From Bacillota bacterium (GTDB lineage: Bacteria > Bacillota > Clostridia > Lachnospirales > Lachnospiraceae): a stretch of 64,000 nt of DNA. The notes under the pieces are model-generated. The model was given only the letters and a program-made list of their open reading frames with translations, did not search any database and was not told the DNA's origin. The translations under genes and the position numbers were made by a program. This document shows, in pieces, positions 8,736 through 45,253 of the stretch. Each line of letters begins with the position of its first letter. The stretch's first letter is position 1. The DNA lies in contig JAEYOQ010000008.1 of the NCBI GenBank assembly GCA_023411555.1, positions 27,550 to 91,549 on the forward strand, in the 5' to 3' direction.

Positions 8736-9027
8736 AAACGACTCCTATTACTTCTTATTAATAATGAAAGTGTATAAGTAGCATTTAACTTATCCCTAGT
8801 ATACCGAAACAGGCATATAATATCAAACACTTTATGAATAATTATAAATTATCTTAATTCTTATATACAAGTTATTCAATTGGAATATAATGTACGATAT
8901 AAGTCCTTTTTGCTTCCATTAATACTTAATATATAATTACAGTGCAGAAGTTTCAGAAGTTTCGCACATATATGCTTCTGCTAGAATAACCACTTATCTA
9001 CCTTTCAATATAATAGGAGAAAATGAT

Positions 9028-9465
9028 ATGCGTAAAATCAAGTTAGTACTCGTACTGCTTCTTATGATTACAATAGCCGGCTGTTCCGACAAAGATGTAA
9101 CTAAGTACTATCATGACTACAAGGGTGAAAGCGAGCTTTGGGAGGTATATTATCACGAGAAATCTGTGGTAACCTTTTGGACAGAAGATGGTATATTAAA
9201 GCACGATACCTCTACAGAAGCAACCTTTACTGCTTTATATAAGAATGATATCAAGGAGTTAACAAAAATACGTCAACTGGAGATCGGATACGATGCAGGT
9301 CTGACTGTGGGCTCTATAAGTGAGAATTACAATGAAGACGGCCCGGATCGTAGAGCTTTTACTCTTAGTTCGAGCAATGGTCTGATCACCCACGAAGCAG
9401 AAATAATAAAAGCAACACTTCGCATCGACGATTATATAGAAACAATAGAATTAACCAGAAAATAG
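9028..9465 (+). CDS. Hypothetical lipoprotein
   Basis: Signal peptide and lipobox MRKIKLVLVLLLMITIAGCSDK. TAGGAG SD present. No recognisable domain. Confidence 0.75.
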   Translation: MRKIKLVLVLLLMITIAGCSDKDVTKYYHDYKGESELWEVYYHEKSVVTFWTEDGILKHDTSTEATFTALYKNDIKELTKIRQLEIGYDAGLTVGSISENYNEDGPDRRAFTLSSSNGLITHEAEIIKATLRIDDYIETIELTRK

Positions 9466-9524
9466 ACTGACATCATAATAGGTATAGACATTCATTTATT
9501 CATGATTATATGAAAGAATATTGC

Positions 9525-9561
9525 AGAAAAAGAATGATAACATAGTTATCATTCTTTTTCT
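9525..9561. terminator. Bidirectional intrinsic terminator between convergent genes
   Basis: Perfect 17-bp stem AGAAAAAGAATGATAAC / GTTATCATTCTTTTTCT with a 3-nt loop; the A/T-rich arms supply U-tracts in both directions. Confidence 0.75.
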
Positions 9562-9642
9562 ATTCCCCGTACACCTGTAGCCGTATTATCAGCATTTGTG
9601 TGAAGTAAATTGCATATTTGGTTTTCCCTTCAAAACCCTAGC

Positions 9643-10950
9643 TTACGGAAACAGTACTTCGTTCAGCTTATCAGGGGGTAAGGGTTTGCATAGCAGATAA
9701 CCTTGACCTCTCTCGCAGGATGTTTCTTTCAGATAATCTAGTTGATCCTGCGTCTCGATTCCTTCTGCTACCACTCTATAATTTAATTCATGAGCCATGG
9801 AGATAATATTATGTGTAATAATCGTCTCCTCATTCCCATGGGGTATTGACTGTATAAAACTCTTATCTATCTTAATGATATCAATTGGCAACTTCTTAAT
9901 GTGAGTTAATGAGGAGTAACCTGTACCAAAATCATCCAATGCAATCCTAATCCCATAGTCCCTGAGTCTGTTCAACCGCTCAATTGCCAAATCGACTTGA
10001 GTAATTATGATTGTCTCAGTAATCTCAAAAATAATCTTTGAGAAATCTACCTTATGTGAGGATATGATTTCTTCGATCCTCTGAAAGTTGCTCGCAGATT
10101 CTAAGGTTTTGCTGGATAGGTTAATGGAAAGCTCAAGGCTATCTAATCCATTCTCCTCCCATTGCATTTTCTGATTCAAGGCTTCATTAATTATCCACCT
10201 CTCCAGACTATAAATCTGTTTTGACTTTTCAGCAATTGGTATAAAGATATCCGGTGATATAAAACCCTTCTTAGGATGTGGCCAGCGCACCAAAGCTTCT
10301 ACTCCGATAATCTCATTGGTTATAAGATTATATTCTGGTTGATAGTAGAGAATAAACTCTTCCTTCTCGATACCATTCTGAAGCTTATTAATCATCTGAA
10401 CCTGTTCGATCATGTCCTTCTGGAGCTCGTCACTATATATATTTATGTCCTTTCCAGACTTTTTAGCAAGATAGCCCGCTGTCTCTGCTTTCCTTATCAG
10501 AGTATCGGCGTCATCTCCATGTTCTGGGAACATCGCAACACCTGCACTCAGCGTGATATAGAAAGCACTATCAGATATGCAAATATTGCACCCACTATCA
10601 ATGACTTCCTCTATCATATCATAAATCTGCTGCTTCGAGCTGATATCGGCACATAAAATCGCAAACTTATCACTATCTACCCTAGTCACATGATTTATGT
10701 TTTTAACCTTGGCAGCAAGATAATCCGCTACACACTTAATAATATTGTCGCACACCTTAAAACCATAGGTTTCATTTAGAAATGTAAAGTTGTTAATATC
10801 TAAATAAACCAGAGCAAATCCATCCGCTCTTGCAAATTGGTTACATGATCTTCGAACAATATAATCGGTTAAAACTCTCTTAAATAAATCGAATTTAGGT
10901 AAGCCTGTAAGTTCATCATAATATGCTGGCTGATAATTTGCTTTTCCCAT
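9643..10950 (-). CDS. c-di-GMP phosphodiesterase: degenerate GGDEF domain plus intact EAL domain, with no sensor domain
   Basis: The GGDEF site reads RVDSDKFA. EAL motifs are intact: EALVRW, FEITET, DDFGTGYSSL, IKIDKSF, EGIET, GQGY. Confidence 0.88.
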   Translation of the reverse strand: MGKANYQPAYYDELTGLPKFDLFKRVLTDYIVRRSCNQFARADGFALVYLDINNFTFLNETYGFKVCDNIIKCVADYLAAKVKNINHVTRVDSDKFAILCADISSKQQIYDMIEEVIDSGCNICISDSAFYITLSAGVAMFPEHGDDADTLIRKAETAGYLAKKSGKDINIYSDELQKDMIEQVQMINKLQNGIEKEEFILYYQPEYNLITNEIIGVEALVRWPHPKKGFISPDIFIPIAEKSKQIYSLERWIINEALNQKMQWEENGLDSLELSINLSSKTLESASNFQRIEEIISSHKVDFSKIIFEITETIIITQVDLAIERLNRLRDYGIRIALDDFGTGYSSLTHIKKLPIDIIKIDKSFIQSIPHGNEETIITHNIISMAHELNYRVVAEGIETQDQLDYLKETSCERGQGYLLCKPLPPDKLNEVLFP

Positions 10951-11040
10951 ACTCTTCTCTCTTGTTCCTCATCCTGCAAAGCTGACGATTATTATGATAT
11001 TAATAGTTGGTCAAATATATAATAATTTATGGGGAAGAAA

Positions 11041-11097
11041 AAAACCATGTCGTATTTGGAAAATTTGATTTAAATTTTCCAAATACGACATGGTTTT
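11041..11097. other. Perfect 26-bp-stem hairpin flanked by an A-run and a T-run (terminator-like), located in a divergent promoter region
   Basis: AAAACCATGTCGTATTTGGAAAATTT-gattt-AAATTTTCCAAATACGACATGGTTTT, followed by TTGCTTTTTTT. Neither flanking gene ends here. Confidence 0.5.
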
Positions 11098-11135
11098 TGC
11101 TTTTTTTAGAGCTTATACTTTAGGTAGATTAAAAA

Positions 11136-11162
11136 TTAAAAACACGTGTTACGTGTTTTTAA
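11136..11162. promoter_or_regulatory. Perfect 12-3-12 palindrome TTAAAAACACGT-gtt-ACGTGTTTTTAA, centred 62 bp upstream of the repeat-protein start codon; candidate operator for the adjacent HTH-TPR regulators
   Basis: Read directly from the sequence. It ends about 21 bp upstream of a possible -10 (CATAAT, 11184-11189), roughly where a -35 would lie. Confidence 0.4.
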
Positions 11163-11210
11163 TTCAAAAATACCACTTAAAACCATAATAAAAAATAGGA
11201 GGATTCAAAA

Positions 11211-11729
11211 ATGAAAAACAATAAAAGATTATTTACTCTCTCTGTATTACTGGTACTTGTGAGCTTAATGTTTATATTCGCTGAAACTCAATTAAAAGAA
11301 GACGTTGGACAAACCTTAGCTAGTGATGTTCCTGTTATCATTACTGCAGAAGACGGAGATGGCGATGCTTATGCTAGTGATATGCCCCATATTGTTACCG
11401 CTTCCACTGAGGATGATCTGACTCTTGCCAGTGATATGCCTCATATCGTTACTGCTTCCATCGAGGACGATCTGACTCTTGCAAGTGACATGCCCCATAT
11501 CGTTACCGCTTCCATCGAGGACGGGCTGACTCTTGCTAGTGATATGCCTCATATCGTTACTGCTTCCATCGAGGACGGACTGACTCTTGCTAGTGATATG
11601 CCTCATATTGTTACCGCTTCCATCGAGGACGGGCTGACTCTTGTTAGTGATATGCCTCATATTGTTACCGCTTCCATCGAGGACGGACTGATTCTTGCTA
11701 GTGATATGCCTCATATTGTTACCGCATAA
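11211..11729 (+). CDS. Secreted tandem-repeat protein: signal peptide plus 1 degenerate and 7 identical copies of the core SDMPHIVTA; candidate poly-pheromone precursor
   Basis: TAGGAGG SD about 8 nt upstream. Signal peptide MKNNKRLFTLSVLLVLVSLMFIFA|ETQ. The rest of the ORF is an 18-aa (54-bp) periodic repeat and ends directly after a core. Confidence 0.85.
   Translation: MKNNKRLFTLSVLLVLVSLMFIFAETQLKEDVGQTLASDVPVIITAEDGDGDAYASDMPHIVTASTEDDLTLASDMPHIVTASIEDDLTLASDMPHIVTASIEDGLTLASDMPHIVTASIEDGLTLASDMPHIVTASIEDGLTLVSDMPHIVTASIEDGLILASDMPHIVTA
11319..11726 (+). repeat. In-frame 54-bp tandem repeat, about 7.6 units (starts 11319, 11373, 11427, 11481, 11535, 11589, 11643, 11697)
   Basis: Manual alignment of the units. 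Differences inside the 27-nt core are all synonymous; amino-acid changes occur only in the spacer. Confidence 0.95.
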
Positions 11730-11731
11730 TA

Positions 11732-12670
11732 TCAAAATATTATTGCATTATCATAATACTTAACAACATGGTCCTCAATGAATTGCTTAACAAAAGAGAG
11801 ATGCATTGCTGAGGCTATATAGTATGCTTCCTTTAAATATTTTAGACATTCTTTCTTATATTCGATAGATAGTGCTCCCTTTTCAATTAACCTCTCTTTG
11901 TTCCATGCAATACCATACAAAAGATTAGGGAGTGCATTACCTATCTTACTTTTTTTACATATTTGAACACCTTCATTAGCTATATTTATTGCCTCTTCAT
12001 GATTACCGATTAGGCCATACCATTTTGATAGATTACAAGTTAAAATAATCTGTAACAGAACTCTTTGCTGCTCTTCAACATAACTCTGCCTTAAGGCATA
12101 GTAAACTTGCTTTACCACCTCTATCGCTTTAAGATATTCTTCTTTTTCAGCATATGCTATAGATATATTAATCAATAGTAATGCTTCGTTATAGCTTAAT
12201 GGCCAATTCGCTAATGATATTGAACCATACCTTGGAATCGTTAAACGTATAGCTTTTTCGTAATTTTCAAGACAATTATCAACACTAATTTTATTCAAGT
12301 AGAAATATACTATTGTCTCTCCCCTAATAATAAATTGCTTATCTAAGATTGAATTTCCAATATTCATTTTTATGTCATTCAACACTTCACTAGCTTTGTA
12401 AAATTCATATTGCCTAGCATAATCCTCAAACAGCTTCATTTTTTCAAGAACCTGCAAATCCGATACTGAAAGCAAGGAATACGCTCTATCTCTGATACGA
12501 CCCATTCGCTCCATCAGGAGCTCATAGACATCTCTACTCGGATTTTGACTACCATTTTCAATCCTTGACAATGTCTCGACAGAACAGATTTCATCACATA
12601 ACTGCTCCTGAGTAATAGACAGAGACTTCCTTGTCATGCGTACTATATCTCCTAGTCGATATCTGCCCAT
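11732..12670 (-). CDS. XRE-family HTH plus TPR-like helical-repeat transcriptional regulator (RRNPP/PlcR-Rgg-like architecture), paralogue 2
   Basis: 312 aa. HTH LSITQEQLCDEICSVETLSRIENG; helical C-terminal region of about 250 aa. GAGGAGGAG SD lies inside the upstream gene, with a 19-nt overlap. Confidence 0.85.
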   Translation of the reverse strand: MGRYRLGDIVRMTRKSLSITQEQLCDEICSVETLSRIENGSQNPSRDVYELLMERMGRIRDRAYSLLSVSDLQVLEKMKLFEDYARQYEFYKASEVLNDIKMNIGNSILDKQFIIRGETIVYFYLNKISVDNCLENYEKAIRLTIPRYGSISLANWPLSYNEALLLINISIAYAEKEEYLKAIEVVKQVYYALRQSYVEEQQRVLLQIILTCNLSKWYGLIGNHEEAINIANEGVQICKKSKIGNALPNLLYGIAWNKERLIEKGALSIEYKKECLKYLKEAYYIASAMHLSFVKQFIEDHVVKYYDNAIIF

Positions 12671-13605
12671 TGATACTCCTCCTCAAGATGCTTCTTAATT
12701 AATTCAGCTTCTGTGTTTTCCTCTAAAAAAAAGTAAACATGATATGCCTGTAGATAGTATTTTAAGCACTCCTTCTTTACTGAATCCCACCTTCCCTGAT
12801 GCTTGAATAATTCTTCTGTCGTATTTGCTTTAACATAATATAGATCGCCCAGATACTCCATCCTTCGGCTTCCCTTAGTTTTCTCTAAGGCTTTATCGCA
12901 CAACGCAAGTGCTTTTGCTATATGGCCCTCTGCAATATAGAGCTTACATGCCATTACTGCAACCTTTGAATAAGTTTGATTGGTATCCTCGGAGAATTCC
13001 TGAAGCCCCAGATACTCAAGAACTTGGTCCAGAATCCCCTTAGCCCGGTCAATTATCCCTGCAATAATCATACGTTGTGTGATTTCAATAATGATACCAA
13101 GCTCGCTGCTACTTAGATAATAATCCATAATCCTATATGTCTTAAAGTCCGGTACGGTATAGGTTATTGCCTCCATCAGCAGGTTGATCGTCTCCTCAAC
13201 AGCACCACCCTGTACTTCATTTAGTAGGGCTCTGCAATAAACTATGAACTGCATATGTACATTTCCCTTGGAAGCAGTCATCTGTTCATAATTTTTTAGG
13301 AGTTCATAAGCCATCGTATAGTTCTTATCTTGGATTAATTTATTAATGTCTATTCTATATTGATATATCATATAATCAAAGTCAGTTAGAATCAATTCAA
13401 ATTGGTTTGGCATTCTTCCTAGACGTTCTAATAATGTCTCTAATAACAAAGAATCTACATCTCTCTCCCCTGCTTCGATACGTGATAAGGTAGCTACCGA
13501 ACACAAACCTTTGCACAATTTACCTTGTGTGATTCCATAGGATTCTCGAAAATATTGAATGGCTGCTCCGATCTTATTTTTTGCCAAATCATTATTTTTA
13601 CCCAT
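12652..13605 (-). CDS. XRE-family HTH plus TPR-like helical-repeat transcriptional regulator (RRNPP/PlcR-Rgg-like architecture), paralogue 1
   Basis: 317 aa. HTH YGITQGKLCKGLCSVATLSRIEAG. Shares the C-terminal KKECLKY motif with paralogue 2. Confidence 0.85.
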   Translation of the reverse strand: MGKNNDLAKNKIGAAIQYFRESYGITQGKLCKGLCSVATLSRIEAGERDVDSLLLETLLERLGRMPNQFELILTDFDYMIYQYRIDINKLIQDKNYTMAYELLKNYEQMTASKGNVHMQFIVYCRALLNEVQGGAVEETINLLMEAITYTVPDFKTYRIMDYYLSSSELGIIIEITQRMIIAGIIDRAKGILDQVLEYLGLQEFSEDTNQTYSKVAVMACKLYIAEGHIAKALALCDKALEKTKGSRRMEYLGDLYYVKANTTEELFKHQGRWDSVKKECLKYYLQAYHVYFFLEENTEAELIKKHLEEEYQWADID

Positions 13606-13679
13606 TTTACCATTTTCCCACCTATTTTATTATTTTTTAAGTAGTTTAATCGACAAAAACATTAATGCTTCTCAAATAC

Positions 13680-13708
13680 AGATTACCATATCATTTTTTC
13701 CAGTTCAA
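13680..13708 (-). promoter_or_regulatory. Candidate sigma-A promoter of the regulator pair (TTGAAC-N17-TAATCT with a TG extended -10)
   Basis: Minus strand reads TTGAAC tggaaaaaatgatatgg TAATCT, about 70 nt upstream of start codon 13605. Confidence 0.4.
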
Positions 13709-14027
13709 TTATTATTAGTTTAAAAAATGAGAATATCTGTACTTCATAGCTGCAATCTACTAATTTCAATCTATATCTCATGTATCGTGGTGTTGATCAA
13801 CCACACTTGCGTAAACATGAAGCAAGTTGAATCACTTACCAAGTTTTATCCTATCATACTTCCAATCTTATACACTGGTTGAATCACCTTATACAGAATC
13901 TCTCTGCAAATAAATATAGAGTGATCCAAACGCATTCATGCGTTTGTCCGCAGAAGTGAGTCATCCCAAAATGAACTTCGTTCACTTGCCCAGAGGGCTT
14001 TTATTTCATAGGACGAACTTATCTATG

Positions 14028-14067
14028 AAATAAAATATGCTCCTCACGAATTATCATGGGGAGCATA
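14028..14067 (-). terminator. Intrinsic terminator after the P-loop ATPase gene
   Basis: Minus strand reads UAUGCUCC-C-CAUGA-uaau-UCGUG-A-GGAGCAUA followed by UUUUAUUU. Confidence 0.6.
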
Positions 14068-14119
14068 GTAATTATTAGCGTTTATTATATATTACTTTTC
14101 TGTACCATCTATGTATGAT

Positions 14120-15214
14120 CTACCTAACAGCCTTAACAAGGAAACGGTTTCCACCGCATAATACTAACTTCTGCCCCTTCGGAGCCTTAGTCAGCCAGTT
14201 AATATCCTCTGGACTTAGGCTAAAGAGAGGCTTTAGAAGCTCGACCTTATCCATAGGATGACCGAAGATCTCAAAGTAACCGGAGATATTCCGAAAGCTC
14301 AAACGCTTCGTAAGGAAGGTCGCTGTATCTTCAATTGCTGCAGTAATCACGAAGCCCTGGGATTTTGATACCTTATACATCATGGCCATATATTTGTCAT
14401 AGCGCAGGAAAAGGGGGTCCGCATCATCAATCAGAAGTCTTGCACCGGTAATTGGAGCCTTTCCGTTGAGTCTCGTCCATACATCCTCTATCGCCATCAG
14501 ACTGTACTTATCTGTATCTTCTTTGGCTACATTAGAAACATCATAGATTACTAATCGATGACTGCCAATATTAATCTGTTCTTCTCCTTCGGCAATCTGA
14601 TTTAGTTCTGTGATCGCAGCCGCTAACTCTTTTAATTCATCTAGGAAGGTATCCTTAAGTAATATGTTATCCGTTGTAACCGGTTCAAGATTTAACTCAG
14701 CGGCTACTGCTGCCAGACCACTCTTAATATCCTCCAGCTTCCTTGCAATCTTCTTGCTTTCATAAGCATCTATCATACTATTAAAGGCTAGAGCAAACTT
14801 GTTCCAATCCAGATCTCCGCAATCCAGACACTGCTTCAACATAACCTGTTCTATCATGTATTTCTGAAGATTAGTCAGTTTCGGAAGCTTAGTTCCCACC
14901 AAAAGCCTTGCCAAGCCAAATTTGATTTTACTTAAGAACACGATATCCTGCTCACTTATCTCACAAGCATCCTGAATAATCAGGGGATTTAAAGGTTCCT
15001 GCCTCAGATCAATTACTAAACCGTCATACTTTTCGATGAGCTCATTAAACTCACCTTTCTTACTGATGACAAAGACTGTTCCATCCGTATTCTCAAGCAC
15101 ATGTTCTATTTCATTTTTTAATGCACTGGTTTTTCCAGTACCGGCAGGCCCAAAGTAGAATCCGCTGCCCCCATTAATCATATCTCTTCGCTGTTGATAA
15201 ATCTGAACTGCCAT
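14120..15214 (-). CDS. Orphan P-loop NTPase resembling the C-terminal ATPase module of VirB4/TrsE-type conjugation ATPases (AAA-like/DUF87-type)
   Basis: Walker A GPAGTGKTS. Putative Walker B RLLIDDAD. C-terminal ...LSPEDINWLTKAPKGQKLVLCGGNRFLVKAV recalls VirB4 C-termini. AAGGAGGGG SD present. Confidence 0.7.
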   Translation of the reverse strand: MAVQIYQQRRDMINGGSGFYFGPAGTGKTSALKNEIEHVLENTDGTVFVISKKGEFNELIEKYDGLVIDLRQEPLNPLIIQDACEISEQDIVFLSKIKFGLARLLVGTKLPKLTNLQKYMIEQVMLKQCLDCGDLDWNKFALAFNSMIDAYESKKIARKLEDIKSGLAAVAAELNLEPVTTDNILLKDTFLDELKELAAAITELNQIAEGEEQINIGSHRLVIYDVSNVAKEDTDKYSLMAIEDVWTRLNGKAPITGARLLIDDADPLFLRYDKYMAMMYKVSKSQGFVITAAIEDTATFLTKRLSFRNISGYFEIFGHPMDKVELLKPLFSLSPEDINWLTKAPKGQKLVLCGGNRFLVKAVR

Positions 15215-27253: not shown

Positions 27254-28282
27254 TCAATTCTCTTCACACATCATAGCAACTGTATCACCGTACTTCTCTT
27301 TGCTTTCCTTAATGAAGTCTTTAATCATATCTACTGATGGCATATCCTCAGAGCATGCATGACTGGCAACTAACAAGGCTGCCGAAGCACTTCCGAACTC
27401 CAGACAGTCGATGATTTCCCAACCCTCGAACAGACCATAGAGAAAGGCAGATGCATATCCGTCTCCGCCTCCAAAGGATTTGAGTAGCTTCACCGGAAAT
27501 GGCTTAATTCCGTAATGTTTGCCATCCTTGGTATAAGCAGTGGATCCCTCTTTACCATGCTTAATTACGACTATTTTAGCTCCCTGTCTATGCCAATATG
27601 CTGCTGTCTCTTTATCTGTCTCATAAGGTGCAACCAATCTCTGAGTTAGATCATACTCTTCTCTGGAACCAAGAATAATATCACTATTCGATGCTACTAT
27701 GGAATAATAGATTGCAATCTCATCCTCATTCTTCCAATTATAAGGGCGGTAATCAATATCAAAGATAATACCCGTATTATGCTTTTTCGCTAGCTGCATC
27801 GCCTTCAAAGCAGCCTCTCTGCTAGGACTTTCTGCCAATGCGGTTCCTGAGATCAAGATTGCTTTTGCATTCTTGATATATTCCTCATCCACGTCAGCTG
27901 TCTCTAACTTAAGATCCGCAGCCTCATTGCGATACATCAGTATGCTGCTCTGTGTCTCACTTAGTATCTCAGTAAAGGTCAATCCAAGCTTCTCACCATT
28001 CTTGCATCTACTGATGTGTGAAGTATCGATACCTTCCTTGGCAAAATAATTTGTTACAAAATCTCCAAACTGATCCTTGGACACCTTCGCGATAAAGCCA
28101 ACCTTTCTTCCCAGCCTCGCCATACCTACTGCAATATTGGCAGGTGAACCACCAAGATATTTCTTGAAGGTAGTGCTCTCTGCAAGTGGTTTGTAGTAAT
28201 CCACCGGATTAAAATCGATTGCTATTCTACCGATGAGTACTAAGTCAAAGGGTCTATCCTTAGCAAATTCTATGTATCCCAT
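27254..28282 (-). CDS. iolC: 5-dehydro-2-deoxygluconokinase (PfkB family)
   Basis: PfkB ribokinase-like motifs (GGSPANIAVG..., GGGDGYASAF) and iol context. Confidence 0.9.
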   Translation of the reverse strand: MGYIEFAKDRPFDLVLIGRIAIDFNPVDYYKPLAESTTFKKYLGGSPANIAVGMARLGRKVGFIAKVSKDQFGDFVTNYFAKEGIDTSHISRCKNGEKLGLTFTEILSETQSSILMYRNEAADLKLETADVDEEYIKNAKAILISGTALAESPSREAALKAMQLAKKHNTGIIFDIDYRPYNWKNEDEIAIYYSIVASNSDIILGSREEYDLTQRLVAPYETDKETAAYWHRQGAKIVVIKHGKEGSTAYTKDGKHYGIKPFPVKLLKSFGGGDGYASAFLYGLFEGWEIIDCLEFGSASAALLVASHACSEDMPSVDMIKDFIKESKEKYGDTVAMMCEEN

Positions 28283-38729: not shown

Positions 38730-39722
38730 TTATTCCTTGATAATCCCACGGAGCTTTAATTCACCCGCTCTATGACATGCCACGTAATGTCCCTTCTCCA
38801 TTTCTATAAAATTAACATCCTCTGTTTTACATTTGTCGATGCAGTATTTACATCTTGTGTGGAAAAAGCATCCCGAGGGCGGATTTGCCGGATTTGGAAT
38901 CTCTCCCTGCAATGGAATTCTCTCATTTTCAAGGGTAGGATCTGCAATTGGTACAGCAGAGATCAGTGCTTCCGTATAGGGGTGCAAAGGATTCTTGAAT
39001 AATTCTCCGCTTGTGGTATACTCTACCATCTTCCCTAGATACATAACACCCACTTTATCCGAGATATGTTCAACTACCGATAGATCATGACTAATGAACA
39101 GATAGGTCAGCTTCAACTCCTTCTGCAAGTCCATCAATAGGTTTACCACCTGAGCCTGAACGGATACGTCAAGGGCAGATACCGCTTCATCGCATACGAT
39201 CAGACGAGGATACAGTACAAGAGCTCTGGCAATACCAATTCTTTGACGCTGTCCACCAGAAAAGGCATGGGGATAGCGCTTGAGATAACTGGGATTTAAA
39301 CCAACCTTAACCGCTATCTCCTTTACACGAGCTTCAATCTCCTTCTTGGATAGTTTAAAATTCGCTCTTAAGGGTTCTGAAATAATGTCAAATACCGTCA
39401 TACGCGGGTCCAAAGAAGAAAAAGGATCCTGAAAAATCATCTGTATCTCTTTTCGAATGGTTTTCATGGAAGCCTTATCGATCTTCTGTAAGTTATACTC
39501 CGTTCCATCCTCAGCAAGATATAACACCTCACCTGCAGTCGCATCAACTGCTTTTACGATGCAACGACCAAGTGTGGTTTTGCCACAGCCAGACTCACCA
39601 ACAATACCGACAGTCTCACCCTCATTTACCTCAAAGCTCACATTATTCACAGCTCTTACATCAACTTTTTTTGAAGAGAAGGTCTTGCTCATTTCTTTTA
39701 CTTTTAATATCGTTTTCGACAT
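38730..39722 (-). CDS. Opp/Dpp-type ABC transporter ATP-binding protein (OppF-like)
   Basis: Walker A GESGCGKTT, signature FSGGQRQR, and a C-terminal oligopeptide-type extension containing Cys residues. Confidence 0.92.
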   Translation of the reverse strand: MSKTILKVKEMSKTFSSKKVDVRAVNNVSFEVNEGETVGIVGESGCGKTTLGRCIVKAVDATAGEVLYLAEDGTEYNLQKIDKASMKTIRKEIQMIFQDPFSSLDPRMTVFDIISEPLRANFKLSKKEIEARVKEIAVKVGLNPSYLKRYPHAFSGGQRQRIGIARALVLYPRLIVCDEAVSALDVSVQAQVVNLLMDLQKELKLTYLFISHDLSVVEHISDKVGVMYLGKMVEYTTSGELFKNPLHPYTEALISAVPIADPTLENERIPLQGEIPNPANPPSGCFFHTRCKYCIDKCKTEDVNFIEMEKGHYVACHRAGELKLRGIIKE

Positions 39723-39734
39723 AACAATCCCTCC

Positions 39735-40742
39735 TTACTGTTCTTTCTTCTTAGCAGCACTCATATCTGCATAGCAGGCAACAAAATGGCCTTCATTCAC
39801 TTCCACCAAGGTTGGTTCACTACAATTACATTTACCCTTCTCACGATACTCGCAACGATCATAAAAGCCACATTGATTAGCCAGATTCATTGCAAGGGGT
39901 ACCGTTCCTTCTATGGAATAGAGACGATCATGTCCTCCACCAATCTTATGGACAGAGCCCATCAATCCAATCGTATACGGATGAAGAGGATTTTTGAATA
40001 TATCCTTAACCGGAGCTATCTCTACAATCTTTCCAAGATACATAACCGCTACACGATCACATACCTTCGCCACTGTCCCAAGATCATGGGTAATGTAGAG
40101 AATTGCCATCTTAAATTCCTTCTGCAACTCCTTCATCAGTTCAAGAATCTGCGCTTGAATCGTTACATCCAGGGCTGTAGTAGGCTCATCCGCAATGAGA
40201 AGCTTCGGATTACATACCAGCGCCATTGCAATCAAAGCTCTTTGCAGCATACCTCCGGAGAATTCATGAGGGTATTGGTTATACCTCTTCTCCGGATTAG
40301 AAATCCCCACTTTACGCATTGCTTCTATGGAAATCTCCTTTGCTTTCTTTTTATCCTTTGTCATATGGAGACGTACAAACTCGGAAATCTGATGTCCTAT
40401 GGTGAATAGGGGTGAAAATGAGCTCATGGGCTCCTGGAATATCATCGATATATTCTTGCCACGGATACTTCTTATTTCAGCACCACCAAATTTCATATCC
40501 AACAGATTTAGCTCACGACCTTCATTCTGGAAGGTGATCTTACCGGTTGTAACACATTTCCGATCATTAATTCCCATGATCGCCTTGCTGGTCAAGCTCT
40601 TACCACATCCCGATTCTCCTACTAATCCAAGGGTTTCATTCTCCTTGATTGAAAAGCTGATTCCTCGCAGTGGAGTCAGTATGCCTTCGTCCAGTTTGAT
40701 TTTTATATTAAGGTCCTCAACTACAACTACATTCTTTTCCAT
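39735..40742 (-). CDS. Opp/Dpp-type ABC transporter ATP-binding protein (OppD-like)
   Basis: Walker A GESGCGKSL, signature FSGGMLQR. Confidence 0.92.
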   Translation of the reverse strand: MEKNVVVVEDLNIKIKLDEGILTPLRGISFSIKENETLGLVGESGCGKSLTSKAIMGINDRKCVTTGKITFQNEGRELNLLDMKFGGAEIRSIRGKNISMIFQEPMSSFSPLFTIGHQISEFVRLHMTKDKKKAKEISIEAMRKVGISNPEKRYNQYPHEFSGGMLQRALIAMALVCNPKLLIADEPTTALDVTIQAQILELMKELQKEFKMAILYITHDLGTVAKVCDRVAVMYLGKIVEIAPVKDIFKNPLHPYTIGLMGSVHKIGGGHDRLYSIEGTVPLAMNLANQCGFYDRCEYREKGKCNCSEPTLVEVNEGHFVACYADMSAAKKKEQ

Positions 40743-40754
40743 TTAATACCTCGC

Positions 40755-41948
40755 TTATTTATAAGGGTCTGCAGCATCGCGTAAGCCATCACCCAGGAAG
40801 TTAAATGCCAACACAGCTAATCCCACGAAGAGGACTGGTATTAGTTTCCACGGACAATTGGCGATATTGCTGATACTCTGGCACTCTTGCAATAGCACGC
40901 CCCAACTGGTAGCAGGTGCACGCATGCCCAATCCCAGGAAGCTCATTGATGTTTCTCCCAATATCATACCGGGAATACCCAAAGTAAGATTTACAATCAG
41001 GTAGCTCATGAAGCCAGGGACCAAATGCTTTGCGATAATTTTCGCGTCGGATACACCAGCCAATCTTGCTGCCATAACATAATCTTCCTTCTTCAGGGAA
41101 AGGAATTTACTTCGAACCGTTCGTGCAAGTCCCGGCCAGCTGAGTAAAGACATGATTACGGTAATAAATATGTATACCTTTACTACGGAGATACCAGGTG
41201 GAATAGCAGCAGAAAGCGCCATCCATAATGGTAAAGTAGGAAAGGAAGAGATAACCTCAATTATTCTCTGTATTACAGTATCAATAATACCACCATAATA
41301 ACCGGAGATTCCACCGATGACAATCGCCAATAGGAAGGATAAAAAGGTTCCAATCAAAGGTACAGTCAATGATACCTGACTACCAATCAGTATTCTGGAG
41401 AACAAATCACGCCCAAGCTGATCTGCTCCAAATAGCATAACATTTACCTTGTCCTTTCCAGGTGGTAGGTCTGAATTATCAATTCCAAATAAATGCAAAT
41501 CACTTTTTATAAAGCCCAATAATTTATAGGAAGAACCTTTTACAAAAAATTCAATCTTGTAAGGTTTATCTGTTTTCTCCAGGAATATTTTATTTAAAAA
41601 TTTATCGTAAGAGACCTCAAGGTCGTATACAAACGGACCAATAAATTCACCCTCGTGTACAAAATGTACCTTGGTCGGCGGAGAATTGGAATAGGTTGCC
41701 GAGAAATCCTCCAAGCCTTGTGGAGCGATAAAGTTGGCAAAGATTGCACAGGTATACAGTAATGCTAAGATGATAAAGCTGATCATTGCAAGCTTATGTT
41801 TTAGTAGCTTTCTCCCCATTAGCTGCCACTGCGAGGATGTATAATACTTTTCTTGCTTTGCGCGCTTCTTTTCCAGCTTCTTTAATTCCTTCTCGCTTAA
41901 ATTAGTACTTTCAGGAGCAGAATTGGTTGTTATATTCTCTTGACTCAT
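40755..41948 (-). CDS. Opp/Dpp-type ABC transporter permease (OppC-like) with a charged N-terminal extension
   Basis: BPD-transport permease features; 1-nt overlap with the upstream permease gene (TAATG). Confidence 0.9.
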   Translation of the reverse strand: MSQENITTNSAPESTNLSEKELKKLEKKRAKQEKYYTSSQWQLMGRKLLKHKLAMISFIILALLYTCAIFANFIAPQGLEDFSATYSNSPPTKVHFVHEGEFIGPFVYDLEVSYDKFLNKIFLEKTDKPYKIEFFVKGSSYKLLGFIKSDLHLFGIDNSDLPPGKDKVNVMLFGADQLGRDLFSRILIGSQVSLTVPLIGTFLSFLLAIVIGGISGYYGGIIDTVIQRIIEVISSFPTLPLWMALSAAIPPGISVVKVYIFITVIMSLLSWPGLARTVRSKFLSLKKEDYVMAARLAGVSDAKIIAKHLVPGFMSYLIVNLTLGIPGMILGETSMSFLGLGMRAPATSWGVLLQECQSISNIANCPWKLIPVLFVGLAVLAFNFLGDGLRDAADPYK

Positions 41949-42940
41949 TATTTACTCTCCTCTAGTAATTTAATCCTCGGGTCCAGAACAGCAAGCAGTA
42001 AATCAGAAATCAGCGTACCGATAACTACCAGTGTTGCTGAAATCAGCAGGATACCTCCGGAAAGATATACATCCTGAGATTGTAATGCTTTTAATAATAT
42101 CGGGCCCTGAGTCGGAAGCATCAATACGATTGCTGTAATGGTTGAACCATTGAAGATACCGGAGATCATTCCTCCAAGCCCACTTACAATCGGATTAATA
42201 ACTGCACGCATTTCATACTTATAGGTTATCGTTTTTTCACTTACACCCTTTGCTCTTGTGCAGAGTACATACGGCTTTTCCTGCTCATCCAACATCTGAG
42301 CACGAATACTTCGAATTAGTCCACAGGCACCTGACATACTGATAACAATCGTGGGTATAATTAATCGTTTCAAGAACTCCAGGAAGGTTGCCCAAGAAGT
42401 GATACCTCCTTCCGGAAACAGTCCCATTAATGGTTTACCCGTCCATTTATAAGATAAATACATCAATAGAATTGCCAATAGAAAGTGCGGAACAGCCATA
42501 CCTACAAAACCGATCAAAGTAAAGAAGTAATCACCGATCGAATATTGATGCTTTGCAGAATAAATTGCAATCGGTATAGCGATCATATAGGTTACAACTA
42601 ATGTAATCAGCGATATCATCATGGTTGCTCCAAGCGTCTCGCCGATCTTTGCCAATACCGTTTGGTTATAATAAAAGGAAGTACCCCAGTCTCCTGTCAC
42701 TATGCCACCCAGCCAATCGACATACTGTACCATGAACGGACGATCCACCTTATACATAGCGCGCAGGTTTGCGATATCTGCCTCTGTTACAGTCTCGCCT
42801 TGTGCTATCATATCGGTTACCAAGCTATCCACAAAATCACCGGGTGGAAGCTGAATTACAAAAAATACTACGAAGGTAATCATCAATAATGTAAAAAGGG
42901 CCAGCGTGAGCCTCTTTGTAATATATTTCAATTTATCCAT
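41948..42940 (-). CDS. Opp/Dpp-type ABC transporter permease (OppB-like)
   Basis: 330-aa multi-pass membrane protein with an OppB-like N-terminus (YITKRLTLALFTLLMITFVVFFVIQLPPGD). Confidence 0.9.
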   Translation of the reverse strand: MDKLKYITKRLTLALFTLLMITFVVFFVIQLPPGDFVDSLVTDMIAQGETVTEADIANLRAMYKVDRPFMVQYVDWLGGIVTGDWGTSFYYNQTVLAKIGETLGATMMISLITLVVTYMIAIPIAIYSAKHQYSIGDYFFTLIGFVGMAVPHFLLAILLMYLSYKWTGKPLMGLFPEGGITSWATFLEFLKRLIIPTIVISMSGACGLIRSIRAQMLDEQEKPYVLCTRAKGVSEKTITYKYEMRAVINPIVSGLGGMISGIFNGSTITAIVLMLPTQGPILLKALQSQDVYLSGGILLISATLVVIGTLISDLLLAVLDPRIKLLEESK

Positions 42941-43165
42941 AACTTATCACCATAGAACCCTTCTCAACTTCATTTGCCTTGAATATAGATGTGGGCTTTT
43001 GCAAAGGTGCTAAAATTCTGCCAATTTACAAAAGCCCTCCATCCTATTACACTACCTAAATATACTTACTCCTTATGCTCGTACCAAGTATCCTTCTCAC
43101 ACTTCCCAGACGTAGGTACAAGCTTGCATACTACGTCAAAACTTTTAATAAGCCTTTACTAAGTC

Positions 43166-45253
43166 TTATTTAGCTAAATATAACTGCTCCGGACGCATCA
43201 TGCTTGCAAAGCGGTACTCATCTGCCCATACAACGTTAGACGGGAAATTCTTAACCTTGTTATTTACAAAGAAGTTAATCGGCAGTGGTGCCAGATATCC
43301 GATAATCCAAATATTTTCTTTATGTAAATCATAGATCTTCTTCACATTTTCTGCAACAACTGCTTCTCTGTTATCTCCTGATGCATTCTTAATTGCATCA
43401 TAAGCGTTGATTAACTCAAGTACAGCTCCGGTCGGTTCAACTCCACCATTTGCTGTAGTCTTGCCATCCTCATACCACTTACCGTATGCACCATACCAGC
43501 AGCTGAAGTTACGCATCGGAACAACAATATCAGGGCGGATAGCAGGAGAGGTCATGCTAACACCTTCAAACTTCGCTTCAATATTATTAACCAATATTGA
43601 TTTTGCGATTTCTGCATCTACCTTGTCAGATACCTTAACACCGATTGCTTTGTAAGCTGTCTGCAGTAAGGTTATGTAATCGCCTTCCTTACTGATATCA
43701 CTGGTAGAGATAACAATTTCAACATCCTTATTGGTGCCCTTCATCTTACGATAGGTACCCGGTGCTTTGTCCCAAGGCTCTGTTATCTCATCCAAAATAC
43801 TGTTAGCCTTATCAACATTATATTCAGTCCACTTATTAGCCCATTCCGCATCGTAAAAAGCTGTACCCTCTGAAGGTGCTGCTTGTGCAGGCTTTGATTG
43901 GCCACTCATCAAGGTGGCATTCATTAGGTTTCTGTCAACACTGATAGAAAGCGCTTCTCTAAAGCGAATATCCTGGAACAGTGCTCTCTTATCCGAATCC
44001 TGTACTGTCTGGCAAAGAGCCAAAGCAGGTCCACTCTGCCATTCCGGTCTGAACCAAGGAACTATAGTATGAGTCGCCTGAGTTGCTGTTGCTACAGTAG
44101 CATAATCGCCAAACTCAACGGTTGAGATATCAATTTCACCTGCTGTCTGCTTAAGAACTACCTGATCTGCATCGTTAATAATGATAAACTTTATGCTGTC
44201 AAGATAAGGCAATTGACGACCTTCACTATCTGTCTTCCAGAAATAAGGATTACGAACTAATTCATAGGTCTCACCAACGGTATTCCAGTTATCTTTCACA
44301 GCGATAAAGCTTCTAATCTGAGGAACAATTGCATAATCCCAGTTATAATAGCCGATATCCTTACCCATGGTGCCGTAATCTTCCCAAGCTCTGCCAAAAT
44401 CCTTGTTTGCATTAGCAATTGCCTGCTCTTCGGTAATCAGAGGGAAGGTAGCATCATCCGCTACTCCGTCTTTACGAGCAACATAATTGATATAGAAATG
44501 CTTCGGTAAGAACATCCACTTATTATCTACTGCTACTGCCTCAGGGAAGTTCGGCTTCGGAGCAGCGAAGGTTACTGTAAATGTATAATCATCAACCTTA
44601 GCAAATTCAGCCCAGTAATTCTTGCCGTCTTTTGTAACCTGGTAGCAATTATAAGGCTTAGAGGTATATGCAGGATAGTAGCCCGCTTCCTCTACACCTA
44701 CTGCAGTACGGTCTGCGTTCAAAGCCGGAGTTGACATGTGATCATAATAGAATATTACGTCATCTGCTGTAAAAGGATGTCCATCAGACCACTTCATACC
44801 TTCACGAAGCTCGATTGTCCATACAGAACCATCTTCATTCGAATAAAAATCCTTACATACATTCGCCTCTACTTCACCGGAGCCATCCAATTTAAAACGG
44901 AACATACTCTGTTCCGTATAGGGACCCCATCCCCAACGGCCACCGTCATTAGTAGTAGCAGTAATGCTACCGCCATATTCTCCCAGTGACTGAACATCCT
45001 TTTCCACCATTACATCTTCAGCTACTGGCAGACGCTCTTCCAATGCTGGCAGAGTACCCGCAGCAACCTGCTCAGCAAGCATCGGTGCCTCTTTAGCCAA
45101 ATCGGTTGGTTTACTATCTTCACCCGCAGTATCATTTGTTGTGGCTGGAGTTGGATTCTGTGTCACTCCTCCATCGTTTGAAGGTTTGCTGCATGCTGCC
45201 AAGGAACCAAATCCAAGAACCACTGCCAGCATAAGTGCTAATACTCGTTTCAT
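43166..45253 (-). CDS. Family-5 (Opp/Dpp-type) substrate-binding lipoprotein, unusually large (695 aa)
   Basis: Lipobox GFGSLAACSKP, then a Thr/Pro-rich linker. AAGGAGGAG SD present. Confidence 0.88.
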   Translation of the reverse strand: MKRVLALMLAVVLGFGSLAACSKPSNDGGVTQNPTPATTNDTAGEDSKPTDLAKEAPMLAEQVAAGTLPALEERLPVAEDVMVEKDVQSLGEYGGSITATTNDGGRWGWGPYTEQSMFRFKLDGSGEVEANVCKDFYSNEDGSVWTIELREGMKWSDGHPFTADDVIFYYDHMSTPALNADRTAVGVEEAGYYPAYTSKPYNCYQVTKDGKNYWAEFAKVDDYTFTVTFAAPKPNFPEAVAVDNKWMFLPKHFYINYVARKDGVADDATFPLITEEQAIANANKDFGRAWEDYGTMGKDIGYYNWDYAIVPQIRSFIAVKDNWNTVGETYELVRNPYFWKTDSEGRQLPYLDSIKFIIINDADQVVLKQTAGEIDISTVEFGDYATVATATQATHTIVPWFRPEWQSGPALALCQTVQDSDKRALFQDIRFREALSISVDRNLMNATLMSGQSKPAQAAPSEGTAFYDAEWANKWTEYNVDKANSILDEITEPWDKAPGTYRKMKGTNKDVEIVISTSDISKEGDYITLLQTAYKAIGVKVSDKVDAEIAKSILVNNIEAKFEGVSMTSPAIRPDIVVPMRNFSCWYGAYGKWYEDGKTTANGGVEPTGAVLELINAYDAIKNASGDNREAVVAENVKKIYDLHKENIWIIGYLAPLPINFFVNNKVKNFPSNVVWADEYRFASMMRPEQLYLAK

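Follow-up and report, generated by a model that had tools for sequence, protein, structure and literature searches.

The 64,000-nucleotide stretch analysed here (the window; positions 27,550 to 91,549 of contig JAEYOQ010000008.1, assembly GCA_023411555.1, a Lachnospiraceae bacterium) carries on its plus strand, at 11211..11729, an open reading frame (ORF) for a small propeptide whose C-terminal part is a tandem array of nine-residue cores. As assembled, the ORF list and the translation gave a product of 172 amino acids (aa) composed of a signal peptide, a pro-region, eight cores and seven spacers, followed by the stop codon. The predicted Sec signal peptide, MKNNKRLFTLSVLLVLVSLMFIFA (11211..11282), was recognised by a charge and hydrophobicity heuristic, with three Lys/Arg residues within the first eight positions and a 12-aa hydrophobic stretch of mean Kyte-Doolittle value 3.25; its cleavage site is putative. 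The pro-region ETQLKEDVGQTLA (11283..11321) ends at an xLA junction, as is found before every core. It is followed by a variant first core, SDVPVIITA (11322..11348), a first spacer, EDGDGDAYA (11349..11375), and seven SDMPHIVTA cores with six acidic 27-nt spacers of the form S[T/I]ED[D/G]L[T/I]L[A/V] (11376..11726). These cores, of 27 nt each, start at 11376, 11430, 11484, 11538, 11592, 11646 and 11700. Tandem Repeats Finder (TRF) reported a 54-bp period with 6.6 copies, 91% matches and zero indels at 11372-11725, in frame with the ORF, and a TAA codon directly abuts the last core. A ribosome-binding site, AGGAGG (11197..11202), lies 8 nt 5' of the ATG. The gene is convergent with that of a regulator, designated R1 (11732..12670, minus strand), the two stop codons being 2 nt apart; a second regulator gene, R2, lies upstream of R1. 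No wall or membrane anchor was found in the propeptide. An NCBIfam search returned nothing informative for the propeptide, R1 or R2, and a Herpes_ICP4_N Pfam match of the propeptide (17 bits, below the cut-off) was treated as noise. A preliminary description of this DNA had recognised seven 54-bp units within 11319-11729, the last of them followed immediately by the stop codon. TRF and the translation agree with its unit starts and with the position of the TAA. The range does hold the seven SDMPHIVTA cores, but the unit at 11319 has the other core, SDVPVIITA.

A search with R1 gave 224 homologs from Herbinix, Mobilitalea, Anaerocolumna and other Lachnospiraceae. Sixty-nine genomic loci around relatives were fetched (loci are denoted below by numbers preceded by L), and 41 of these loci were orthologous to that of the window (56-90% identity).

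Among the seven SDMPHIVTA cores, the only variable codons were GAT/GAC, CCT/CCC, ATT/ATC, ACC/ACT and GCT/GCA, all of them synonymous, and the four replacements of the array (T/I, D/G, T/I and A/V) all lay in spacers; both observations had been made in the preliminary description and were reproduced here. Nei-Gojobori counting over unit pairs of the window gave proportions of synonymous (pS) and nonsynonymous (pN) differences of 0.37 and 0.00 for the core and of 0.24 and 0.092 for the spacer. The spacer also has synonymous changes, and its pN/pS ratio of 0.38 indicates that it is constrained too. Under neutrality, five synonymous changes out of five in the core have a probability of ~5e-4, or of 4e-3 when a generous synonymous fraction is assumed. 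The contrast between core and spacer was not significant for the window gene alone (Fisher p=0.10). When 18 multi-copy genes were pooled, cores had 99 synonymous and 40 nonsynonymous events and spacers had 33 and 42 (p=1.2e-4), and the pooled counts with site numbers yielded omega estimates of roughly 0.12 and 0.43, respectively. In all 17 genes with at least three cores, cores identical in amino acid sequence were encoded by two to eight DNA versions. The core is under purifying selection, and the earlier proposal that it was held constant while the DNA drifted is borne out by these counts.

The same substitutions bear on the coding strand. An ORF on the minus strand (11316-11735) overlaps the array, and it might be the real gene, or the array might be a repeat or an assembly artefact 3' of the regulator operon, with no plus-strand gene at all; automatic annotation did choose the other strand, assemblies disagree within the array and contigs break there. 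In the antisense frame, however, all 12 variable codon columns are nonsynonymous (0:12), as compared with eight synonymous and four nonsynonymous in the sense frame, and this identifies the plus strand as the coding one. Furthermore, all 40 complete genes of the family possess a GGAGG-type ribosome-binding site and, by the same heuristic, a basic-then-hydrophobic, Sec-signal-like N-terminus, and arrays recur in over 20 assemblies made independently in different studies. We regard the absence of a plus-strand gene as hardly credible.

The number of units is less certain than their reading frame. The exact R1 protein is also encoded on other public contigs, of which one, ENA ERZ28597986 scaffold_167 (L070), has flanks identical to those of the window and thus represents an independent scaffold of the same organism. 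Its array is interrupted by a 100-N gap; the first four units are as in the window, the later ones follow in a different order, and at least 13 cores are present in total. At least 12 of them are SDMPHIVTA cores, every one read being SDMPHIVTA with synonymous variants only. A Logan contig of the same organism (L071) ends at the last array unit, and two further loci (L072 and L073) likewise end within their own arrays. Because of the gap, the other unit order and the larger number of cores in L070, the copy number and unit order of the window are unreliable, and the window array is probably collapsed or polymorphic. The count of seven units in the preliminary description is correct for the window assembly, but the number and order are insecure; its statement that the copies are not fresh slippage products also holds on that assembly, although it is based on unit differences that are arranged otherwise in L070. 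The automatic gene call in L070 (3803-4201) took the antisense ORF, corresponding to window 11316-11735 on the minus strand, over the propeptide gene.

Every orthologous locus with enough downstream sequence contained a small secreted ORF convergent with R1, with 5-65 nt between the two stop codons. Distant relatives had single-copy genes of 40-52 aa with the motif at the C-terminus (e.g., HDMPPIDTF, SDMPPIDSY, SDLPFVD and SDLPAIDW), and closer relatives had 2-15 core copies. Fifteen cores, mostly SDLPAIITA, occurred without spacers in L004, and spacers were also missing in L008 (seven cores) and L009; from these spacer-free arrays it follows that the repeating unit is exactly 9 aa. Other arrays consisted of 11 SDMPEIVTA cores plus one variant (L076), 10 SDCPPIESA cores (L067), nine cores (L001) and at least eight cores (L010). 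In most arrays the N-proximal cores differed from the amplified ones, being SDVPVIITA in the window and in L002 and of SDAP type in relatives, and in relatives GQ(T/A)(L/F/Y)A precedes the first SD. A metagenome contig (L086, JGI24708J26588_10026261) showed two 12-aa units in blocks, five copies of SDFPAIDSIAFA followed by three of SDFPPFDTIAIA, and this chain looks like a carrier of two pheromone types.

The constancy of the core that had been described for the window applied to orthologues in part. S-D-x-P was nearly fixed and cores were uniform within a gene, but between lineages positions 3 and 5-9 changed. As expected, this lineage-specific variation is of the kind that pherotypes would give; free variation would look different. 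The ends of the genes were equally regular: of the 24 multi-copy genes whose 3' end is known, the stop codon came right after a 9-aa core in 20, after a 12-aa spacer-free unit in two and after short tails in the remaining two. Together with the C-terminal motif of the single-copy genes and the spacer-free arrays, this agrees with the suggestion of the preliminary description that the functional unit has one of its edges at the C-terminus.

The signal peptide and the regular, partly acidic repeat would also suit a secreted structural or surface protein, adhesin-like or part of a matrix, that acts as an uncut polymer, and repeat number varies by lineage here as it does in many surface proteins. 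Such a role appears very improbable, since the propeptide has no anchor, the reading frame stops at the edge of a core in those 20 of 24 relatives, the constraint is strongest on nine residues, the orthologous single-copy versions are too small, and spacers can be wholly absent. A released peptide, favoured over a structural repeat in the preliminary description, gains support from the signal-like N-termini, the missing anchor, the adjoining PlcR-like receptors and a PapR-like motif, of which the last two are considered next.

R1 is a 312-aa regulator with an HTH_3 helix-turn-helix (HTH) domain and tetratricopeptide repeats (TPR; TPR_12), and was classified as PlcR-like from Pfam, profile and predicted-fold comparisons. 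A family profile of R1 (alignment A1) matched PlcR (2qfc) with E=1.4e-7, residues 5-253 aligning on 5-241; the identity of 16-20% makes R1 a distant relative. The AlphaFold (AF2) model of R1 was all-helical with a mean predicted confidence (pLDDT) of 84, and its best Foldseek matches in the PDB were the PlcR-PapR7-DNA complex 3u3w (E=2e-7), 2qfc and 4fsc, with template-modelling (TM) scores of 0.59-0.70, followed by ComR, Rgg2/3, PrgX, Rap and NprR. The R1 residues N213 and K216, which correspond in the alignment to PlcR N201 and K204, are both invariant in the 30 sequences of A1. In PlcR, K204 hydrogen-bonds the PapR backbone (PMC2441798). R1 is the putative cognate receptor of the core peptide. 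Its HTH part was unusually conserved, with a mean pairwise distance of 0.12 versus 0.42 for the TPR part. In L016, L019, L020, L021 and L026, S-I replaces N-L at R1 positions 213-214, and these S-I receptors pair with a distinct peptide subclass, in which Gly or Ser precedes the conserved Pro (e.g., SNGPPIDSLGLF) and the C-terminus is extended by GLY, GLF, GIS or IMF; the pairing could be co-variation, though it is confounded by phylogeny.

R2 (12652..13605, minus strand; 317 aa) has an HTH_3 domain and an RNPP_C-like region in Pfam, the RNPP_C match (E=2.4e-5, 24.4 bits) being below the 26.5-bit cut-off. It overlaps the start of R1 by 19 nt, and the two genes form a probable R2-R1 operon. R2 shares 26% identity with R1 and was found directly upstream of it in 41 of 41 orthologous loci. 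Both regulators have the format of RRNPPA receptors, which are TPR-type HTH proteins of 250-500 aa. Pairwise alignment revealed no N-x-x-K groove motif in R2 at the position aligned to N213/K216 of R1, and R2 may bind the peptide differently or not at all. Upstream of R2 there was no second propeptide: small ORFs in 13606-14119 lacked a signal-like N-terminus and the motif. Mantel correlations between receptor and peptide were r=0.64 for the R1 TPR part and r=0.48 for that of R2, and were significant for every domain, including the HTH; as they thus mostly reflect phylogeny, they do not show which of the two receptors binds the ligand. Regulator pairs about 30% identical to R1/R2 were observed in Roseburia and other gut Lachnospiraceae (L040, L046, L047, L049, L054, L064 and L066), where a convergent single-copy secreted small ORF follows the second regulator. 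Because these pairs share the layout, the two-receptor convergent arrangement is older and wider than the repeat-bearing subgroup.

The upstream region of the propeptide gene contains an inverted repeat (11040..11098) with perfect 27-nt arms, located between the propeptide gene and the divergent GGDEF-EAL gene and present as a single copy within the window. Its conserved 18-nt arms, CATGTCGTATTTGGAAAA (11046-11063) and TTTTCCAAATACGACATG (11075-11092), recurred with at most three mismatches in 39 of 39 loci, down to an R1 identity of about 57%, with loops of 5-32 nt. In 36 of the 39, the right arm ends 21 nt before a TATAAT; the window has TATACT instead (11114..11119), a putative -10 box of the propeptide promoter whose position is conserved and which has no good -35 box. 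A search with the inverted-repeat pattern retrieved 10 further metagenome loci, and a secreted propeptide follows in seven of the nine that have the arm and TATAAT. We read the inverted repeat as a candidate operator for the receptor, standing in for the -35 box. It is also terminator-like on both strands, with a T-run, and has a strong intrinsic-terminator look on the minus strand, where it could stop R2-R1 transcription that has passed in antisense direction across the propeptide gene. An Rfam scan of 9000-14500 gave only plant/animal miRNA-type hairpin matches on the inverted repeat, and since these were far below thresholds, it belongs to no known RNA family. A second palindrome, AATTAAAAACACGT-N3-ACGTGTTTTTAATT (11134..11164, plus strand), maps to what is predicted to be the 5' leader of the propeptide mRNA. 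The multi-copy subgroup has kept it, with ACACGT/ACATGT changes that are symmetric, and other hairpins occur there in the single-copy subgroup.

Taken together, we consider it highly likely that this ORF encodes the pro-pheromone of a quorum-sensing system of the PlcR/PapR-like (RRNPPA) type, with the mature peptide in tandem copies. Several features are shared with PlcR-PapR of the Bacillus cereus group. The receptor is of the HTH plus TPR type, PlcR being the best profile and fold match of R1, with N201/K204 corresponding to N213/K216. The propeptide is small and predicted to be secreted, with the presumed active peptide at its C-terminal end, and the window includes an Opp-type operon. The PapR heptapeptides are ADLPFEF, SDMPFEF, NEVPFEF and SDLPFEH, and their lineage specificity resides at position 3 (PMC2441798). 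The common start S/A-D-[L/M/V]-P is matched here by cores beginning with SDMP, SDLP, SDAP or SDVP, which are most variable at the third residue. Set against the heptapeptide pattern of PapR, x-D/E-[LMV]-P-F-E-[FH], the S-D-M-P of the window core matches the first four residues of PapRII/IV; the following HIVTA differs, the core being 9 aa long, and L001 has SDMPF. Two further features of RRNPPA systems were found, namely a small gene for a predicted secreted propeptide adjoining the receptor and a C-terminal peptide unit, here of 9 aa, within the range of 5-10 aa. The window gene also has the feature of a tandemly duplicated pheromone, at least two copies per propeptide, with seven identical cores and one variant.

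Other features set the locus apart from PlcR-PapR. Its core has 9 aa rather than 7 and is repeated in 8-15 tandem copies with 9-aa acidic spacers, and there are two tandem paralogous receptors in a Lachnospiraceae host. Several points weigh against assigning the ORF to such a system. Wherever the peptide gene was found among the orthologous loci, as in the window, it is convergent with R1 and not co-directional as in plcR-papR. No PlcR box (TATGNAN4TNCATA) was present in or near the locus, where the inverted repeat with 18-nt arms is found instead; the five matches in the window with at most one mismatch, none of them in the locus, are as many as chance predicts. An arm spacing that varies between 5 and 32 nt is unusual for an operator bound by a dimer and more in keeping with a hairpin or terminator. 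Two receptors accompany a single peptide gene, and the Mantel correlation that might have linked one of them to it is confounded by phylogeny. Release of the internal copies needs a C-terminal cut at variable junctions (A|S, A|D, A|E, A|A and C|S). The propeptide had no protein match, itself included, in a search of 5.8 billion proteins, probably because gene callers pick the antisense ORF; and because it has no detectable protein homolog, its homology to PapR is drawn from a motif of four to five residues plus the homology of the receptors. The whole case is built from sequence and predicted structure. The locus is best filed as a distant PlcR-like subfamily of RRNPPA systems that has neither the gene orientation of PlcR-PapR nor the PlcR box.

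Multi-core precursors of ribosomally synthesized and post-translationally modified peptides (RiPPs) also have tandem identical cores with spacers. The gene could accordingly encode such a precursor, or that of a bacteriocin or an inter-species effector, with the regulators controlling its expression without sensing the peptide; selection on the core fits any released peptide, and binding of the core peptide by R1/R2 is only predicted. In contrast to multi-core RiPP clusters, no dedicated modification, processing or export enzyme is found nearby, and neither a peptide-modifying enzyme nor a dedicated exporter nor an immunity gene occurs near the propeptide gene. The conserved neighbours are instead two RRNPPA-type receptors and an EAL protein. 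The N-terminus is Sec-like rather than a RiPP leader, S-D-[LM]-P matches the PapR heptapeptides, and the 40-52-aa single-copy relatives look like ordinary RRNPPA propeptides. We therefore hold a secreted bioactive peptide of this other kind to be improbable.

In the pro-pheromone interpretation, the biochemical steps were modelled on PlcR-PapR (PMC2441798; PMC4701985) and on duplicated Phr propeptides (PMC11343458). The 172-aa product would be exported by Sec and its signal peptide removed, after which extracellular proteases would cleave every core on both sides, at the conserved xLA|SD junction in front of it and behind its final Ala. Since the cores resemble PapR heptapeptides, the N-terminal edge of the mature peptide was placed at Ser. 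The nonapeptides set free from each chain, possibly with minor trimming, would be a single SDVPVIITA and at least seven SDMPHIVTA. In the PlcR-PapR system, Opp takes up PapR and papR is activated by PlcR (PMC4701985). By analogy, the released peptide would be re-imported by an oligopeptide permease and would bind the TPR groove of R1 and possibly that of R2, and the regulator would act at the inverted repeat that replaces the -35 box of the propeptide promoter, leading to autoinduction. The divergent EAL phosphodiesterase gene may also be controlled, which is probable at most. More cores would mean a higher signal output per transcript. A more elaborate version of this scheme, which we consider speculative and rather unlikely, is that the array acts as an evolvable gain-and-specificity device for two receptors. 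The N-proximal variant cores and the amplified cores would then be two pherotype-like ligands read differently by R1 and R2, and the copy number, from 1 to 15 and apparently unstable, would set the gain. Antisense transcription from R2-R1 up to the 11040-11098 hairpin would provide a convergent-transcription switch coupling quorum sensing to the hydrolysis of cyclic di-GMP (c-di-GMP).

The array has counterparts in other systems. Signal peptide, pro-region, tandem pheromone copies and acidic spacers also make up the yeast alpha-factor precursor and eukaryotic poly-peptide prohormones, although the likeness is one of analogy only; processing of alpha-factor into many identical signals depends on Kex2/Ste13 and dibasic sites, and its receptor is a G-protein-coupled one on the cell surface. 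Among bacteria, propeptides with several pheromone copies have been documented for Rap, NprR, PlcR and AimR systems (PMC9765709). Two phage Rap-Phr systems have duplicated propeptides that are processed into active peptides, the copies being released by extracellular proteases in the cases studied, and up to eight copies have been reported (PMC11343458). Several identical or slightly different copies, and mixtures of variant and identical ones, are common to those propeptides and to the present family. In contrast to them, this family reaches 12-15 copies (L076 and L004), with at least 13 in the organism of the window, has a regular 18-aa core-plus-spacer unit and a DNA-binding PlcR-like receptor instead of Rap, and is known from genes alone. 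TprA/PhrA of Streptococcus pneumoniae comprises a PlcR homolog and a peptide imported by an oligopeptide permease (PMC7595303). It resembles the window locus in that a PlcR-like regulator adjoins an oppositely oriented peptide gene. It differs in its single-copy peptide of unrelated sequence, in a repressor that the peptide relieves, and in having no paired receptor.

The surroundings of the locus comprise glycoside hydrolases, chorismate synthase, the GGDEF-EAL protein, the two regulators, a VirB4-like ATPase fragment and Lgt, and the only partners conserved across loci are R1, R2 and the EAL protein. The GGDEF-EAL gene (9643..10950, minus strand; Pfam EAL 6e-76, GGDEF 3e-25) is divergent from the propeptide gene. 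In its translation the GGDEF site is degenerate (RVDSDKF) and the EAL motifs EALVRW, DDFGTGYSS and EGIET are intact, which by established motif knowledge suggests that the protein is probably a c-di-GMP phosphodiesterase. Of the 41 orthologous loci, 29 have a GGDEF-EAL or EAL-only homolog in the corresponding place, and several without one are too short to reach it; the gene found there in several related loci matches the EAL half only (about 250 aa). It is a candidate output gene, its regulatory link to the pheromone being inferred. Farther away, an Opp-type ABC operon (38730-45253, minus strand) lies among glycoside hydrolase genes and encodes a 695-aa SBP_bac_5 protein, two permeases and two oligo_HPY ATPases. 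It is a candidate peptide importer, for which other substrates are equally possible. A gene at 14120-15214 (minus strand) encodes a 364-aa stand-alone P-loop protein that had no Pfam match. It shows a weak similarity, far short of the cut-off, to the central part of VirB4-like conjugation ATPases (NF045971, E=1e-13), and several related loci have kept it (71-86% identity) upstream of R2.

Tandemly duplicated RRNPPA propeptides have already been published, and the family of the window is apparently undescribed in Lachnospiraceae. No description of this subfamily was found in the literature searched, surveys of RRNPP systems included; the RRNPP_detector paper and its supplements contained no entries for Lachnospiraceae, Herbinix, Anaerocolumna or Mobilitalea, which is not proof of absence. 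The 12-15 copies, the regular alternation of core and acidic spacer, the paired receptors and the EAL association go beyond published cases. Such arrays break or collapse short-read assemblies, and precursors of this kind are missing from protein databases, probably because gene callers take the antisense ORF. Peptide quorum sensing is almost uncharacterised in Lachnospiraceae, a family of plant-fibre degraders and gut commensals. The conserved module found here is compact and recognisable: an invariant inverted repeat is combined with the propeptide gene, the genes of two PlcR-like receptors and usually that of a putative EAL phosphodiesterase. Cultured relatives that possess the module are Mobilitalea sibirica DSM 26468 and Herbinix hemicellulosilytica (L012 and L030). 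Its predicted ligands can be synthesised, making peptide signalling and a possible link to c-di-GMP directly testable in these bacteria, and the natural series of one to 15 copies is well suited to the question of why pheromones become duplicated.

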